DNA of 64,000 bases from contig OX597840.1 of NCBI GenBank assembly GCA_951406725.2, forward strand, positions 33,480,001 through 33,544,000, written 5' to 3'. This document shows positions 12,646-33,704 of this stretch, in pieces. Within the stretch, counting starts at the first letter, position 1. The number at the start of each line of letters is the position of its first letter. This DNA is from Octopus vulgaris. Lineage: Eukaryota. The position numbers and the translations under genes are program-made. The notes below the pieces were generated by a model. It did not search any database and was not told where the DNA came from. It saw only the letters and a list, made by a program, of their open reading frames with translations.

Positions 12646-13124
12646 TAGTTCCGAATTGGTATTTATCCATTCCTTCTTGGAGCAGATGTTTCCTTAGTAA
12701 TGAAGAATTTAGTGTTTCTACTATGAAATTCTTACTTTTCGCTAACAAGTACTAAAAGACTTTATCCTTTAAATCCATTTGTTGGTACCATTTTGGTTGG
12801 TAGTCAGTATTGGTATCTAGGCTTTAGTACAGATCTGGTGTCGCTACGGTGGTCAAATAGTAGTGTCCACTCATTGGTCAAACTGACCATTGCAAGTCTC
12901 CGTTTTTGCCAAGTCCTTAGTACTTTTGTGGGCGTGGCATTCGCAGAAGCATACAAATAAAAGTGTGTGTGTGTGTCTGTGTGTGTTGTATTTTTCCCGC
13001 ACCACTACTTAACAAATGGTGTTCGTGTGTTTATGTCCCTGTAACCTTATGGTTCGGCAAAGGAGACCGATGGAATAAGTATTTGGCTTTAAAATTTTCT
13101 GGGATAGATTCATCCGTCTGCAAA

Positions 13125-13505
13125 GCTTTGCTCCAGCTTGCCCCAACTTTGGCCCAGCTTTGCCTCATTTTTCCCCCAGCTTTGCCTCAAATTTGCCCTA
13201 GATTTGCCCCAACTTTGCCCCAACTTTGCCCACCTTTGCCCCAGCTTGCCCCAGCTTTGCCCCAGTTTTGCCCCCAGCTTTGCCGCAGTTTTGCCCAGCT
13301 TTGCCCCAGTTTTGCCCCAGTTTTGCCCCAGCTTGTCCCAGCTTTGCCTCAGCTTTGCCCCCGTTTGTCTCAGCTTTGCCTCAGCGTTGCCCCAGCTTTG
13401 CCCAAGTTTTGCCCCAGCTTGTCCCAGCTTTGCCGCAGCTTTGTCCCAGATTTGCCCCAACTTTGCCCCAGTTTTGCCCCAGCTCTGCTCCAGCTTTGCC
13501 GCAGT
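13125..13505 (+). repeat. 10-11 bp minisatellite (CCCCAGCTTTG)n within a SINE A tail
   Basis: Roughly 35 variant units read directly; flanks match the SINE A 3' region. Confidence 0.92.
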
Positions 13506-18704: not shown

Positions 18705-19616
18705 TTACTACTACTACTATCACCACCAACACTACCACAACCACCATCACCACCACAACCACCACTACTACTACTCCTACGACTACTACCACCTCTACCA
18801 CCGCCACCATCTACAACTACTCCTACCTCTCCTGCAGCTACTGCTCTACTACTACTACAACCACCACCACCACCACCACTAATACTACTACAAGTGCTGA
18901 TGCTGTTGCTTCTGCTTTCGTTATTGTTGCTGTTGCACCGCCCACCACAACCTTCACCACCACCGCCCACCACAACCTATCACCACCACCAACCATCACC
19001 ACCATCACCGCCACCAGCACAACCTCGACCACATCAAACGCCACCACCACCACCACCATTGGAGCTACCTGTGTTGTGAGCACCAACGACGGCACCATCT
19101 CCATGGCTACCTGACGTAGCCGCACCACTCCCATATCTGCTGTTGTCAGCGCCAGGATCAGCACCACCGCCACTACCATCACCGCGGGGCCTCTATCGTC
19201 GCCGGCACCCACATCACCACCGCCACATCCACGGCACACCAGAAGCATTCACACCACTGCCTTGATCACCACCACCACCACCACCACCACCACCACCACC
19301 ATTACCATTACCACCACCGCCATCACCACCTCCGCCGCCACCGACACCACCATCAGGACACAAAACAGCTGTATTATGTACCAATATTCTTTACCAATAA
19401 TCCTTCCCGTGTCTCTTCCCTACTACCACCAACACCCACCACCACTTCTCCATTACGCCTGATACTGACCACTGACCACTGTCCACTCACACACACACAC
19501 ACACACACACATGCACACCCACAAGCACACACACATGTTACTACGACTACCATTCAACACCGCCTCTGCAGCCGCCATACTACTACTACTACTACTATTA
19601 CTGCTATTACTATTAC

Positions 19617-20582
19617 CTATTTCTTTACTACCCACAAGGGGCTAAACACAGAGGGGACATACTAGGACAGACATAGGTATTAAGTCGATTACATCGACCC
19701 CAGTGCGTAACTGGTACTTAATTCATCGACCCCGAAAGGATGAAAGGCAAAGTCAACCTCGGCGGAATTTGAACTCAGAACACAAAGACAGGCGAAATAC
19801 CTATTTCTTTACTACCCACAAGGGGCTAAACACAGAGGGGACAAACAAGGACAGACATAGGTATGAAGTCGATTACATCGACCCCAGTGCGTAACTGGTA
19901 CTTAATTCATCGACCCCGAAAGGATGAAAGGCAAAGTCAACCTCGGCGGAATTTGAACTCAGAACACAAAGACAGGCGAAATAACTATTTCTTTACTACC
20001 CACAAGGGGCTAAACACAGAGGGGACAAACAAGGACAGACATAGGTATGAAGTCGATTACATCGACCCCAGTGCGTAACTGGTACTTAATTCATCGACCC
20101 CGAAAGGATGAAAGGCAAAGTCGACCTCGGCGGAATTTGAACTCAGAACACAAAGACAGGCGAAATACCTATTTCTTTACTACCCACAAGGGGCTAAACA
20201 CAGAGGGGACAAACAAGGACAGACATAGGTATGAAGTCGATTACATCGACCCCAGTGCGTAACTGGTACTTAATTCATCGACCCCGAAAGGATGAAAGGC
20301 AAAGTCAACCTCGGCGGAATTTGAACTCAGAACACAAAGACAGGCGAAATAACTATTTCTTTACTACCCACAAGGGGCTAAACACAGAGGGGACAAACAA
20401 GGACAGACATAGGTATGAAGTCGATTACATCGACCCCAGTGCGTAACTGGTACTTAATTCATCGACCCCGAAAGGATGAAAGGCAAAGTCGACCTCGGCG
20501 GAATTTGAACTCGGAACACAAAGACAGGCGAAATACGGCTACGCATTTCGCCCGGCGTGCTAACGATTCTGCCAGCTCGCCT
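19617..20582 (-). mobile_element. SINE family B: one tRNA-like head plus five tandem 184-bp bodies
   Basis: ORF-track starts 19863/20047/20231/20415 show the 184-bp period; head GGCGAGCTGGCAGAATCGTTAGCACG..GAGTTCAAATTCC on minus; body contains GCCTTTCATCCTTTCGGGGTCG (resembles a Meta-type SINE domain, from memory). Confidence 0.88.

Positions 20583-26917: not shown

Positions 26918-26920
<3 letters not shown>
26684..26920. mobile_element. Fold-back pLTR-like element: ~165-bp palindrome (26684-26848) with a hammerhead in each arm
   Basis: Arms pair around CTAGATTCTAG; ctgt-CTGATGA-acggcaacga-GAAA-ctcagag-TA-acag at 26778-26815 (+) and 26717-26754 (-); (TA)n on both sides. Confidence 0.72.
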
Positions 26921-26984
<64 letters not shown>

Positions 26985-27022
26985 GTGTGTGTGTGTGTGT
27001 GTATAGAAATATATATATATAT

Positions 27023-27086
<64 letters not shown>

Positions 27087-27091
27087 GGTGG

Positions 27092-27169
<78 letters not shown>

Positions 27170-27216
27170 CATATATATATATATATATATAGATAGATAG
27201 ATAGATATATAGATAG

Positions 27217-27288
<72 letters not shown>

Positions 27289-27598
27289 CTTTTTATTGTA
27301 GCCACACAGGGCTAAACACAGAATAAAAATGGACGAAATACAATGTAGAATTTTTTCTTTTCGAGGTGGGATGGGTGGGGCGAGAGAAGAAAAAAAAAAA
27401 AAAAAAAAAAAAAACGTTTGATCAATAGGGATCTGTGGGTTGTGTGGTGTATAAAAAAGCAATATATATATATATATAAGGTTCACAGTTTAGGTGTAGT
27501 CTTGGAAAGAAAAACCTACAAAAAAGACCAAGGTCACCTCAGGCAATTCGAAAAAGAACACATGAGTAAGTCGCCTTACTTCTCGTTGTCTCTTTTGG

Positions 27599-30500
27599 TT
27601 ACAGATTTATGCTTAAAATAGTGTCGTCTTTCATACTGACCATTTTTGCCACTTTTACCCACTTTTTATTAAAACATTCATTCGACAAAGCCTTCCTCTC
27701 TATTCTCATCCTCCTTTTCAAGTGGTACTTGAAAAAGTTGACGAGAGACTGACCAGAGAGGAAGATGTTTGTTTGCAGTCCTTTCAAACGCGTCCACCAC
27801 ACACATTCTTTCGCCATAGCCATCAGCGTCACGAAAACCGTTTTCCCTTCCCGTTTAAAGGAAGGTGGTGGAACAATATTCACGATAGACTCGGCCGATA
27901 GGCGAGCCTGACCTACACGTGACAACAGCTGTTCGACGAAGGACCACAGCTCTGAAATATCTGAACACTGCACGAGTGCGTGCAGAACGGTTTCGTCGCT
28001 CTGGCCGCATCTCGGGCAGGTCGGTCCGGTGATGGTTTTCGAACCGTGTCTGTAGCTCTTCTCTCGAACAGGTAGTGCGTCTCGATAGCACTGCCAAGCC
28101 AGGGATTTCTGGAAGTTATCCATAGGCCCCGGCCCGAACGTCGTCCTGAACAGGCGGGTTAGGAATTCCTCGTCGACGCCCAGGTTTGCCCCGAGTGTGT
28201 CGTCGGACCTCCCCTCCACTAGTCCTCTATAGAACGCTTTAGTCGTTTGGAAGTTGCACAAGTTTGACCCCGGTCGGCAGAGCTGCTGTAGAGCTTGGCG
28301 ACACTCTCGGTGCCAATCGCCCAGTTTCGGTCTCTTTTTGATCCACGTTTGCAGTTCGGTCAGTGAGACGAGCTGCGGGAAGTCGCGCCTCACAAACGGC
28401 GCCCACACCTGTTCACCGTCGTCGATGAATTTCCAGAGATGTCGCAGTCTCAGCGCATGCCTGCGCATCATCAACCACGGCATGCCCAGTCCTCCATTCA
28501 ACGGATGTTGACAGCAAATGGACTTCCTCACCATCGGAACGCCACCCTTCCACAGGAAGCGGAAGAGTATGCGTTCCAGTTTGGTGATGGTGGCGTCGGG
28601 ACAAGGTACGACGGTCAGGCGGTAATCGATGACGGATGCGATGTACGCGTTCGCCACCTCCGCCCGGCCTTTTAGAGACAGCTTTCTCTCGGCCCATGTT
28701 TGGCTGAGAGCGACCACTCTACTCGTGATCTCGTCCCAGTTCTTATCCATTTGGAGGTCCGGACTGAACCAGACCCCGAGCAATTTAACCGGTCCGTCCG
28801 TCCAGCGTCCCACTACTGAGCCGCAGTCGGACGGCATGGGCTTGCTTCTCCAGGTGCCGAGTAGCAAACCCACTGACTTTTCCGGGTTAATCTTTGCTCC
28901 CGTCACCGTTTCATATTTTCTTAGTGTCTCGCCGACCAGCTCGATGTGCTGGTAGCTCGACACTATGACGGTGACATCGTCCGCATATGCCGACACGCTC
29001 GTCCCGCAACCCAGTTCCCGTGGGATGCCCCTCAGTGTCGCCAGCTTCCGCAGTAGCGGCTCGAGAGTCAATACATACAGAAGCGCCGACAGGGGACACC
29101 CCTGACGGACCGAACGCGTGATGTCAAACGGTTTAGACAGGTGACCGTTTACCCGAATCACCGATCGGATGCCGCTATACAAGGCAGCGATCCAACCGCG
29201 GCTGACGGGACCGAAGCCAGCCGCCCTGAGGACGGCCGCCAAGTACCGATGGTCGACCCTATCGAAGGCTTTAGACTGATCCAAATTTATCAGCGCCCCA
29301 CCCATGCCAGGATCCTTAACTACCCTGTCCACAATGTAGCGCATCAGATGGAGGTTGTCATGTATGGTTCTGCCCGGCACGGCGCATGTTTGCGCCCTGT
29401 CGACCAGTTTACCAATGACAAGCGCCAACCTCTCGGCTATTACTTTGGCCAAAATTTTCAAATCTGCGTTGAGCAGAGTGATGGGCCTGAAATTATCTAT
29501 AAAATTCCCCTTGTTTGAGTCTTTCTTCAGCAACGTCACTGCACCTCGGCTCACGAAACCGGGGATTCTCCCGTTTTGTTGCCAGTTGCAGTAGACTGAT
29601 GCCAAGAGTTCGCCAAACAAGTCTGGCATTCGACAATACAGCTCGTAGGGTAAACCATCCAATCCAGGCGACTTATCCCTCGCGCAGCCCGCCATCGCAT
29701 CCCACACGTCAGCGGCTGTGATGGGACTTTCACAACACTCCGCTTCTCTTGCCGAGAGCCGCGGCAGGTCGGTCAGGTAGGCACTGAAATCCATCCCTCG
29801 TTCCGACCCACCACTCGCACCAAACAGTCGAGCAAAGTGCTGTTGAAAGGCCTCACACATCCTTTCGGGTTCGAGTAAACTGCATCCCTGTTGATCTATT
29901 AGAGACCGAATGGTTGATCTGTTGCCACGCTGCGCCTCCGCTACCCGGGCCTCTCGCGCAGCTTCAATCCCTTCGTTCCTTAAGGCACGCATTTTAGCTC
30001 TGACGACGCAACCTTCGTGCTTGGCGTTGAGGTGTTGGTCGAGGGCCATCCTCGCAGCTAGCACGTTGGTTGCGCTGCCAGTGGTAAGTGCCTCTTCTAG
30101 TTTCTTAACTAAGTCTCCCTCTACTCTATTTCGTTCTATCGCTAATTCCTTGCTAAACCTAATTGATTCCGATTTTATTGCCATTTTCAGGGCGTACCAC
30201 CAGCGGTTGTTAACGACCGCTCCCGTCAGCGCCCTCTTAATTAACTCGCTAATCCGGTTCCTGTAAACCTGTCGCGCTAACAGCGACGTGTTCAGTTTCC
30301 AGTAACCGGGACCCTGCCTATGTGTTTTATCTAAGTCGAGCGTACACGTAACAAATTTGTGATCTGTGTAGCTGACTATTTTAAATTGTGGACATCCTAC
30401 ACTATCCCTATCCGCTGTCCTGCATAGAATTCTATCTAGATAAGATCTCGACGATCCGACGCGGTTTGTCCAAGTCCACGTTGGCACGTTCGGATGGTCG

Positions 30501-31039
30501 AGTCGGAACCTGTCAGACAAATGGAAACGTCTGAGCAGGTCTTTGAGGCTCTTACACCCCCTTCTATTCCTATCCCTTCCCACATAATCTAGATGCGTGT
30601 CCAAGGTAGCGTTCCAATCCCCTACTAACAGTAAAGGTCTAGACGTACCCAGGAAAACCTCTAGACGTCTGAAGAAATCCGCCCGACCCGTTAAGGACGG
30701 TGCATAAACTGCCATCAGACGGAATGCACACCCATTTCTGCCATCCACGTCCAAGACAACCAGCCTACCCTCCGGGTCTAGGAATATTGCTCTTACTTTT
30801 ACCTTTAGACTCTTTCGAAAAAGCACCGCAGTACCTCCACCACCCATGTTCGGCAGACAGGGAGAAAAATAAATGTCAAATTGATTGCCAAACATGGACT
30901 CGAGGGCCCGCGGCTTACTGAGTCTGGTTTCGCTGATAGCTACTATATCCACGTCCAGTGACTTGATGTCGTTTAGAAGGTAACCTTGCTTCCAAGCCGA
31001 CGCCAAGCCACGCGCATTCACACAACCTAATTTAAGCAT
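27599..31039 (-). CDS. LINE ORF2: AP endonuclease, reverse transcriptase and C-terminal CCHC zinc finger (~1146 aa from ATG 31039; track start 31048 is TTG)
   Basis: APE motifs NARGL, ISET, VYAP, GDWN, LDRI, TDH; RT motifs KSPGLDG, FRPITLLNAD, DQSKAFDRV, RQGCPLS, YADD; CPRC..ETVLHALVQC. Uninterrupted. Confidence 0.97.
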   Translation of the reverse strand: MLKLGCVNARGLASAWKQGYLLNDIKSLDVDIVAISETRLSKPRALESMFGNQFDIYFSPCLPNMGGGGTAVLFRKSLKVKVRAIFLDPEGRLVVLDVDGRNGCAFRLMAVYAPSLTGRADFFRRLEVFLGTSRPLLLVGDWNATLDTHLDYVGRDRNRRGCKSLKDLLRRFHLSDRFRLDHPNVPTWTWTNRVGSSRSYLDRILCRTADRDSVGCPQFKIVSYTDHKFVTCTLDLDKTHRQGPGYWKLNTSLLARQVYRNRISELIKRALTGAVVNNRWWYALKMAIKSESIRFSKELAIERNRVEGDLVKKLEEALTTGSATNVLAARMALDQHLNAKHEGCVVRAKMRALRNEGIEAAREARVAEAQRGNRSTIRSLIDQQGCSLLEPERMCEAFQQHFARLFGASGGSERGMDFSAYLTDLPRLSAREAECCESPITAADVWDAMAGCARDKSPGLDGLPYELYCRMPDLFGELLASVYCNWQQNGRIPGFVSRGAVTLLKKDSNKGNFIDNFRPITLLNADLKILAKVIAERLALVIGKLVDRAQTCAVPGRTIHDNLHLMRYIVDRVVKDPGMGGALINLDQSKAFDRVDHRYLAAVLRAAGFGPVSRGWIAALYSGIRSVIRVNGHLSKPFDITRSVRQGCPLSALLYVLTLEPLLRKLATLRGIPRELGCGTSVSAYADDVTVIVSSYQHIELVGETLRKYETVTGAKINPEKSVGLLLGTWRSKPMPSDCGSVVGRWTDGPVKLLGVWFSPDLQMDKNWDEITSRVVALSQTWAERKLSLKGRAEVANAYIASVIDYRLTVVPCPDATITKLERILFRFLWKGGVPMVRKSICCQHPLNGGLGMPWLMMRRHALRLRHLWKFIDDGEQVWAPFVRRDFPQLVSLTELQTWIKKRPKLGDWHRECRQALQQLCRPGSNLCNFQTTKAFYRGLVEGRSDDTLGANLGVDEEFLTRLFRTTFGPGPMDNFQKSLAWQCYRDALPVREKSYRHGSKTITGPTCPRCGQSDETVLHALVQCSDISELWSFVEQLLSRVGQARLSAESIVNIVPPPSFKREGKTVFVTLMAMAKECVWWTRLKGLQTNIFLSGQSLVNFFKYHLKRRMRIERKALSNECFNKKWVKVAKMVSMKDDTILSINL

Positions 31040-31105
31040 ACTTGACAATTACGAAAATTGTGTTTTACACACTATATTAGAAGAGACAAGAGGCAAGAAG
31101 TGAGG

Positions 31106-31522
31106 TCACTTACTCATTTTAAAAGTTTCATTTTTTTCTTCTTCTTTTGTATCGTTTTTGATGAGGTGTTTGTATAGTTTTTTCGACAGGTATCGTTGAT
31201 ACCCGCCTACCGCATTCGGAAATAATGTTTTCAGTATGTGGTGTTGTGCTTGTGTTATGTGTAAAATTCTGATGTGTTTCGGTGGTGTGGTGTGCGGATG
31301 ATTGTTTGTCTTAAAATCATCTTCACAGACGACCATGTTAGATTTGATGTAGTCCATTAATTCTTTATTGTCTGTGTCTATTGCAGTTAGTTGTGTGTGT
31401 GGTTTTACGGGTTCATTACTTTTTTGATTGTCTAGGGGAATGTTGTCCTGAGTGAGATATCTCCCTGCTTTAATTCCTTGTTTGGTGGATTTTTTGGATC
31501 TTTTTCTTTTTACCCCCTGTGG
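31106..31522 (-). CDS. Probable frameshifted C-terminal continuation of LINE ORF1
   Basis: The shifted frame reads open RSKKSTKQGIKAGRYLTQDNIP...KELMDYIKS into the 83-aa ORF 31106-31357. Confidence 0.6.
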   Translation of the reverse strand, partial: PQGVKRKRSKKSTKQGIKAGRYLTQDNIPLDNQKSNEPVKPHTQLTAIDTDNKELMDYIKSNMVVCEDDFKTNNHPHTTPPKHIRILHITQAQHHILKTLFPNAVGGYQRYLSKKLYKHLIKNDTKEEEKNETFKMSK

Positions 31523-32978
31523 CTATTTGCCATTCCGTCGAACTTTCGTCGTCCGAGGTATCAGTATGGGGTAGAGGAAAAAGAACAGGATCACTATGTA
31601 TGCTTGTATAAATTGTTGATGTTTTGTGCGGTGTTTGTGTTGTTGTGGTGTTAGGGGTAGCATTTGTCTTCTCGTCAGTGTTTTCTGTCTTTTTAATTGT
31701 CGTCCTGGGTGTGGGTGTGGGTCGATTTTTTGAAGATTCAACAAGTTTAATTGGTTGTGACGTCAACGGTGATTGTGTTGGTACTGTTTTTCTTGGTGAT
31801 GTTGTTGGGGTTTGTTGTTTTTCTTGGCGTTGTTCCATAATTGAGTGTGTTGGTGTTGGTGTTGGCAACAAAGGGATTTTATTTGTTTTCTGAATTGTTC
31901 TTTCTTGTTTTTTCTGTACCAGATCGCACTTGGCAATCAAATGTTCGGGGCTGCCACATTTGTAGCATCTAGGCTTTTTGCCTTCTGCCATAACATATAG
32001 GCATTGCCCATTCTCCAAGTATATCTTGTCGGGTAGGCTCTCGATAGAGGCCCCCTCAATCTGGATGGTCACAACTACTGTTTTTCCACCCCAATTGTCG
32101 TTTAGGTACACGGCTGTTTCTAGAATATTGATCTTTTTCAAGTGGTAACAGATTGCCCCTGTTATCCATTTGTTCGGCATATCGGGGGGTACATTTCTGA
32201 TAGTAATTCTACTCACCCTCTGGTTTTTATAATAAGGGACCATGATGATTTCATCATTTCCCAGAGACTCAGTAGAGTGAGCTTTTGCCACTTCCTGGTT
32301 AGGGAAGCGGACCACTACTGTGTTAAACTGTGGACCCCAGTTTATATACTCTTTTTCTTTCATTATATTTTTTAAACATTTCTCCACATCAGTTTTTGTA
32401 ATCTGTTCATTTGGTTTTTTGTTTTTTCTAATAATTTTATATACAATTGTCTTATTTTCAATTTCTTGTTTTATATGTTGAGGTGTATGCAGGACTAAAT
32501 CTTGTCCACGGGTTGTAAAGAGAGCTCTTGTTTCTATGAGCTCTTCATTTGTGAATGTAACAATCTCCTTTTTCTGGCGAAGAATATCTGCGAAATTTAC
32601 TGTTGTTGACTTTTTTGTATTAGCATCTTCACTATTAGATAGTTCATTTTTATTGTTGTTCTTGTTGTTGCTGTTGTTTTTGTCAATAGTTTTCGTTTCA
32701 GTTTTATTTTTATCATTTATGTTGGTCGTGGTAGTGGTGGTGGTGGTGGTGGAGGTGGTGGTGGTAGCAGTTGTTGTCTCGTGGTTGCTGTTGTTAGTGG
32801 TGGTGGTGGCGTTGGTGACAGGGCTGTTAACGCACGTGGTTGCAGCGTTCCTTTCACCGAATTTCACGTTGGCATTTTCCGTGCGAACGTTCTTTTTTCT
32901 CTCTGTCGTTTCCAGACTAGGAAAATTTTGTTCCAAAAAAGAACGCGACCAGCGTTCAACAATAAAATTTCTAGACAT
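31470..32978 (-). CDS. LINE ORF1 (gag-like nucleic-acid-binding protein with CCHC zinc knuckle)
   Basis: 502 aa upstream of ORF2 on the same strand; CYKCGSPEHLIAKC knuckle after an RRM-like segment (RITIRNVPPDM). Confidence 0.92.
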   Translation of the reverse strand: MSRNFIVERWSRSFLEQNFPSLETTERKKNVRTENANVKFGERNAATTCVNSPVTNATTTTNNSNHETTTATTTTSTTTTTTTTTNINDKNKTETKTIDKNNSNNKNNNKNELSNSEDANTKKSTTVNFADILRQKKEIVTFTNEELIETRALFTTRGQDLVLHTPQHIKQEIENKTIVYKIIRKNKKPNEQITKTDVEKCLKNIMKEKEYINWGPQFNTVVVRFPNQEVAKAHSTESLGNDEIIMVPYYKNQRVSRITIRNVPPDMPNKWITGAICYHLKKINILETAVYLNDNWGGKTVVVTIQIEGASIESLPDKIYLENGQCLYVMAEGKKPRCYKCGSPEHLIAKCDLVQKKQERTIQKTNKIPLLPTPTPTHSIMEQRQEKQQTPTTSPRKTVPTQSPLTSQPIKLVESSKNRPTPTPRTTIKKTENTDEKTNATPNTTTTQTPHKTSTIYTSIHSDPVLFPLPHTDTSDDESSTEWQIATGGKKKKIQKIHQTRN

Positions 32979-33178
32979 TTTCTAATGTCGAGAAGAAAAT
33001 AACAGAAATGAAATGGGGTCGAAACTGCCCCTAGGGGCGAATTCCTCCCTTGGAATGGCACTCAAATGAAAGTTGGTTGCCTTACACACCTTATTTGCAA
33101 AAATCTACACAAAAATTGGCCTATAAATAGTCAAAATAAATTATTACCTTCGGAGCTGAAACGACATCACATCCGTCA

Positions 33179-33325
<147 letters not shown>

Positions 33326-33334
33326 TATAGATAG

Positions 33335-33383
<49 letters not shown>

Positions 33384-33406
33384 TAGATAGATAGATATAT
33401 AGATAG

Positions 33407-33443
<37 letters not shown>

Positions 33444-33467
33444 TAGATAGATAGATAGATAGGTAGG

Positions 33468-33532
<65 letters not shown>

Positions 33533-33704
33533 TGATAGATAGATAGATAGATAGATAGATAAATTTGGTAGGAGGGAACCACACGATTAAATCGACTCCA
33601 GTACGCAACTAGTACTTATTTAATCCACCCCGAAAGGATGAAAGGCAAAGTCGACCTCGGTGGAATTTGAACTCTGAAAGTAAAGACATAGCGCTAACAT
33701 ATAC

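Follow-up and report, generated by a model that had tools for sequence, protein, structure and literature searches.

What decides where a long interspersed nuclear element (LINE) settles in the octopus genome? The question is raised by a stretch of 64,000 nucleotides (nt) from Octopus vulgaris (contig OX597840.1, positions 33,480,001 to 33,544,000; hereafter the window), in which one such element is embedded in arrays of the tetranucleotide TATC. The repeat could be the DNA into which the element was inserted, or a tail that the element brought along. A preliminary description had proposed a LINE that targets (TATC)n/(GATA)n microsatellites. From a search of the genome (2.8 Gb, 227 contigs), it appears very likely that the window element represents a young L1-group family that, together with a sister family, inserts into (TATC)n arrays with a fixed orientation and phase, duplicating the target site and leaving no poly(A).

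The window element and its 3′ end

The element and its immediate surroundings comprise the following features.
27288..33178, minus strand: full-length L1-group LINE, likely of the Tx1 clade, 5,891 base pairs (bp); copies elsewhere are 99.3% identical over the whole length
26920..27287, minus strand: 3′-flanking compound (TATC)n/(TA)n array, in which the stretch adjoining the junction is pure TATC
33179..33561, minus strand: 5′-flanking compound (TATC)n/(TA)n array, with a higher-order unit in common with the 3′ array
27292..27297, minus strand: AATAAA hexamer, 4 nt before the 3′ junction, with no poly(A) after it
27390..27414, minus strand: T25 tract inside the 3′ untranslated region, not a tail
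27599..31039, minus strand: open reading frame (ORF) 2, 1,146 amino acids (aa), with an APE endonuclease at aa 20-208, a reverse transcriptase (RT) at aa 507-757 (YADD) and zf-RVT at aa 978-1032
31470..32978, minus strand: ORF1, 502 aa, with one CCHC knuckle at aa 337-352; compared with copies of 621-629 aa, it carries a frameshift near 31507-31511

The preliminary description had reported an intact ORF2, same-strand TATC arrays at both junctions and no poly(A), and all three observations hold. The ORF2 frame is open throughout and matches Exo_endo_phos, RVT_1 and zf-RVT. Read directly at the 33178 end, the 5′ junction is ...CTATCTAT/TGACGG; that at the 27288 end is AATAAAAAGT/TATCTATC, where the slash marks the join and the hexamer is followed by the array rather than by poly(A). 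Arrays of at least three TATC units, on either strand, make up 1.6% of the window. The higher-order array unit recurs at 27200, 33318 and 33390, and because it is common to both sides of the element, the two arrays look like one interrupted array.

An ORF2 with APE, RT and C-terminal zinc domains, an ORF1 upstream and the lack of long terminal repeats identify the element as an APE-type non-LTR retrotransposon, as do 5′-truncated copies that share one 3′ end and are flanked by target-site duplications (the latter readable in the sister family only). The endonuclease motifs E, YAP, GDWN, YLDR and TDH of the window ORF2 align with those of relatives; catalytic endonuclease and RT motifs are intact, and copies with open ORF2 are present in both families. 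ORF1 of the window copy ends at 502 aa owing to one extra A in an A-run, as judged against five copies with an ORF1 of 621-629 aa; either the window copy is thus not fully intact or a homopolymer error is present in the assembly. Of the 68 full-length loci examined, 5 combine an ORF1 of 620 aa or more with an ORF2 of 1,146 aa or more, and the nearest copies to the window element differ from it at 0.4-0.6% of positions. The window's family seems young and is probably active, while the window copy itself may not be.

The last 25 nt of the window's family occur exactly at 205 places in the genome, and the sister family, whose ORF2 is 80-82% identical, has 5,577 exact 3′ ends. A position-ordered sample of the window's family was taken from the first 100 places listed; it holds 76 of them, the other 24 being already among the score-selected loci. 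A TATC array follows the 3′ end in all 30 best-scoring copies and in all 76 position-ordered copies, starting exactly with TATC in 70 of the latter. Among sister 3′ ends genome-wide, TATCT comes next in 4,676 of 5,133, and an older subfamily, which includes a fragment at window positions 50280-50754, is followed by TATC in most of 30 loci. Poly(A) is present at none of the sampled 3′ ends. In the window's family, the sister family and the older subfamily alike, AATAAA lies 4-7 nt before the junction. The 3′ terminus abuts the T of TAT(C/A), in a single orientation and phase.

Two kinds of 5′ junction

TATC also lies upstream of full-length copies (30 of 30 in one set, 50 of 53 in another). This TATC is partly carried by the element and is hence not independent evidence of the target, because 21 unlinked copies share one mutated repeat leader. 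The leader with two changes, CTCTGTCTAT/GGACG, is found at 21 places on 12 contigs, and the pure leader at 21 places; elsewhere the variant occurs at 2 of about 6,900 array positions. The upstream flanks of copies with the variant share other family copies in the same arrays and have no unique flank in common. In the youngest subfamily the last unit before the element is TATT in nearly all copies, and CTATT precedes GACGG in 42 of 49 motif-bearing loci, some of which are the same copy. For the same reason little weight can be placed on the window copy's own 5′ junction. Since unlinked copies have the mutated leader in common, the start of the RNA likely lies 10 nt or more inside the array, so that repeat letters travel with it. 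A test for longer 5′ arrays at full-length copies gave medians of 100 versus 82 nt. Three full-length copies (loci L314, L318 and L162) have (TC)n upstream, two of them with a TC-rich variant leader that could pair with (TC)n.

Truncated copies provide the better test, because their break points are independent and the 5′ flank must be target. TATC was scored by 25-nt and 50-nt rules, and the accompanying check for upstream remainders ignored pieces shorter than 60 nt. In the window's family, TATC borders 12 of 22 truncated copies on the 5′ side. In the sister family, where the first 100 listed copies were sampled and the junction is in view in 80, it lies within 25 nt in 55 and within 50 nt in 58, compared with 0.7-2.1% of background positions under the same rules and 1 of 30 copies of an unrelated short interspersed nuclear element (SINE). 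All four TATC phases are used at truncated sister junctions (16/10/9/8). By Kojima's rule a family is target-specific when one sequence type makes up more than 20% of flanks (PMC4494074); the corresponding counts here are 76 of 76 3′ flanks and 58 of 80 truncated sister 5′ flanks.

Target-site duplications and a proposed route of insertion

In the sister family, the distinction between target and tail is decided by copies that missed the arrays. Five sister copies in unique DNA (L256, L262, L385, L386 and L407) are flanked by exact duplications of 5-6, 8-9, 12, 12-16 and 15-17 bp. Each duplication begins with TAT(C/A), follows a T and joins ...AAAGAAACA directly, with no unit added and no poly(A). 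Seven further sister copies, in imperfect arrays, duplicate an array variant across the element (L238, L240, L245, L253, L277, L284 and L402). Two others flagged by script, L384 and L389, were dropped as likely chance matches. Because the unique-site duplications are exact and contain no added unit, it is settled for the sister family that the TATC repeat is target DNA and not an element tail. The preliminary description had held that a tail would be indicated if most copies lacked TATC on the 5′ side; genome-wide, most truncated copies are flanked by TATC, and the readable duplications mark the 3′ TATC as target DNA. Its proposal of a GATA-repeat-specific family is supported by both.

These junctions suggest a route of insertion. 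Since the duplications begin with TAT(C/A) after T, the APE domain would nick the GATA strand at 5′-GATA/R-3′, and the endonuclease would set the choice of target, by analogy with Tx1L (PMC1950540). The start of reverse transcription would be fixed, 4-7 nt beyond AAUAAA, and would involve pairing of no more than 3-4 nt; a second nick would fall about 5-17 nt downstream. Full-length RNA would start at least 10 nt upstream in the array, such that the cDNA could anneal to the target and close the 5′ junction; truncated cDNAs would join at any phase.

Several points weigh against this interpretation. The window's own family offers no readable duplication, all twelve coming from the sister family, and the sister 5′ junctions sampled span the first 31 Mb of one contig. 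In the window's family, the 5′ ends of 7 of the 22 truncated copies lack TATC without explanation, and the 10-20 kb upstream contains no 5′ remainder of them; three more of the 22 are uninformative (a gap, an inverted join and a foreign insert). At 17 of the 80 sister junctions there is neither an array nor a clear TAT duplication. Finally, specificity is not strict, since a number of insertions are found in (TA)n, in (TC)n or at single TAT sites.

An alternative, which we regard as unlikely, is that RNA–DNA pairing or DNA structure mainly picks the target: a lax enzyme would nick at TA-rich steps, with priming confined to nicks able to pair with read-through UAUC. Ordinary cleavage occurs 10-30 nt downstream of AAUAAA, and the hexamer is so near the junction that such cleavage would leave UAUC on the RNA. 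Off-array sites, for their part, have only T/TAT(C/A) in common. R1 transcripts have been proposed to pair with their target (PMC2718515), and loop swaps gave no clean transfer of specificity (PMC1950540). Priming by several UAUC units, however, should often add units at off-array sites, and did so in none of the five; three or four base pairs alone cannot account for the strong preference for arrays, and the Tx1L endonuclease is sequence-specific in vitro (PMC1950540).

Less probable still is an element-encoded TATC tail, from which arrays would grow without any target specificity. Families of the L2, CR1 and RTE types encode repeat tails of this kind. The absence of poly(A) and the nearly invariant first unit after the 3′ end would fit such a tail, as would a long 3′ array combined with a unique 5′ flank in L276, L286, L287, L111 and L112. 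The five insertions into unique DNA nevertheless already contradict it, and L245 and L284 have the same array variant on both sides of the element. TATC upstream of truncated copies is far over background. Shared 3′ variants, moreover, are not clearly grouped by element sequence, a weak test in which only L130 and L176 are mutually among the nearest rows.

Near-random insertion, with copies building up in or amplifying with GATA arrays by selection, duplication or assembly artefact, can scarcely be credited: there are a few duplicate loci (L081/L109; L112-L114 within 30 kb), and 12 of the 76 position-ordered copies have another family 3′ end no more than 600 nt upstream, but the strand and phase fixed at thousands of 3′ ends already contradict it, truncation points are independent, copies less than 0.6% apart lie on different contigs, and Logan contigs of public runs hold the 3′ end, the loose end in one run continuing as GATA repeats.

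A broader proposal may be entertained, although we hold it only tentatively and think it somewhat doubtful. It envisages a cephalopod lineage that has dispensed with poly(A), with a fixed RNA end past AAUAAA, an RNA start inside the microsatellite and the leader serving as a homology arm, and in which sisters in the same arrays may swap 5′ ends. A repeat leader acting as a homology arm would explain why about 70% of copies in the window's family (54 of 76) are full length. Of 100 sister copies, 80 are truncated within 3 kb; the leader alone therefore does not ensure full length, or the sister uses it less. The two families may exchange 5′ ends. The 5′ 20-mer of the youngest subfamily occurs about 2.35 kb upstream of sister-type ORF2s (G000 C3:163624544, C8:63417561, C14:14645810 and C1:184464434), a 5′ end that older members of the window's family do not share. 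If true, the broader proposal would mean that a GATA-specific endonuclease had been described for the first time, and it would offer a natural model of how an element can insert precisely, at both ends, into a repeat.

Relatives and neighbouring features

Membership in the Tx1 clade is likely. A CCHC zinc knuckle in ORF1 is a feature of Tx1-clade elements, and the window ORF1 has one, at a match (E 0.0016, 18.9 bits) just under the Pfam cut-off of 20.8. The nearest named relatives outside cephalopods carry automatic Tx1/YTX2 names, with RT identities of 36-41%; such a match scores 249 bits over 400 aa, compared with 197.5 bits over 866 aa for human L1. The nearest named protein is from Argonauta hians. 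In a midpoint-rooted RT tree of 29 rows (none a true Tx1L, Kibi, Koshi or L1), this protein, the window element and the sister form a starred clade, which is nested in a wider starred group of unnamed rows, about 50% identical, and stands apart from the vertebrate Tx1-named rows. No locus of these 50%-identity relatives was found in metagenome contigs. Close relatives with a different target were also sought, and all 30 loci from a distant protein query proved to be TATC- or TATA/TATC-flanked members of the two families.

Human L1 has the APE, RT and C-terminal zinc domains in common with the window ORF2 (E 2.6e-57, aa 6-871). It differs in its poly(A) tail and lax TTTT/AA target (PMC1950540), neither of which is found in the window's family; the ORF1 of the window's family, in addition, has a CCHC knuckle. 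Closer in kind are Kibi on (TC)n, Koshi on (TTC)n and the crocodilian Tx1-clade families on (TTCC)n/(TTTC)n (PMC4494074, PMC3812793), which are likewise L1/Tx1-group APE-RT LINEs in one microsatellite type. Those families use other repeats in vertebrate hosts, whereas the target here is (TATC)n in an octopod; (TC)n flanks are rare (L162, L269, L314, L318). Other LINEs that use microsatellites as safe targets, namely Waldo (ACAY)n, Mino (AC)n, Dong (TAA)n and Togen (TG)n, belong to other clades and use other repeats (PMC3812793, PMC4640811). The melanogaster-type R1A of Drosophila resembles the route proposed here in its fixed first nick, duplications of up to 17 bp, precise full-length junctions and upstream 28S target sequence at the RNA 5′ end; it differs in its clade (R1), its target (28S rDNA) and a leader with a 9-bp target deletion, which would be unreadable in a pure repeat (PMC2718515).

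In a 2026 repeat annotation of octopus, 13 L1-Tx1 families count as recently active, and the word 'target' is unused in the text searched (PMC13282606); the window's family may sit unnamed in such a library. No TATC/GATA-targeting LINE was found in the literature searched; Repbase, Dfam and Kojima and Fujiwara 2004 lay outside the search, as did the fuller target listing of PMC4494074, which may name one. The kind, a microsatellite-targeting LINE, is known; what is new is the (TATC)n target and, likely, the host group. How APE-type LINEs target microsatellites at the molecular level has been described as poorly understood (PMC3812793). The two families, both young, combine open ORF2s with a single target and thousands of readable junctions, which makes the predicted nick site, duplication length and RNA ends directly assayable. 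A GATA-repeat nickase or integrase would extend the short list of site-specific APE enzymes. Both families shape many GATA arrays in the genome, which bears on microsatellite markers and assembly.

Copies of both families stack head to tail in single arrays (L004/L034, L023, L078, L017, L099 and others). L127, once taken for a non-TATC truncation, is really a full-length copy with one TATC unit at its 5′ end, split about 35 nt from that end by a 14-kb insert (L127/L190, G000 C4:93117512-93131811) with a 6-bp duplication; the insert itself precedes further nested copies. On their 5′ side, three truncated copies (L150, L405 and L406) adjoin a degenerate tandem repeat of the GAAAATTTTC type.

Two related fragments lie elsewhere in the window.
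50280..50754, plus strand: 3′ fragment of the older subfamily (75% identity), ending AATAAAAACA before (TATC)n, with a GA-rich 5′ flank
45988..46219, plus strand (fragment 46000-46208): 3′ fragment with a sister-family end, (TATC)3 before it and TATCTATCTAT after it

The first had been described, at 50279-50753, as a copy ending in (TATC)n with a non-TATC 5′ flank, which is correct, its 3′ end being that of the older subfamily and not of the window's family. For the second, placed at 46000-46210, the short TATC on both sides was rightly noted, and the 3′ end is to be reassigned to the sister family.

An abundant SINE whose head resembles a tRNA (4,548 candidates) is represented at 45826-45987 on the plus strand by its first 162 bp, being cut short there by (TATC)3 and the sister-type fragment. 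This SINE was ruled out as TATC-targeted, with TATC at 1 of 30 copies. Further along, 55004-55195 (plus strand) is an isolated fragment of the 3′ end of 18S rRNA (Rfam RF01960, model 1667-1823). Five 184-bp units, 98% alike, span 19614-20536, and an 11-bp minisatellite of 35 copies lies at 13124-13504.

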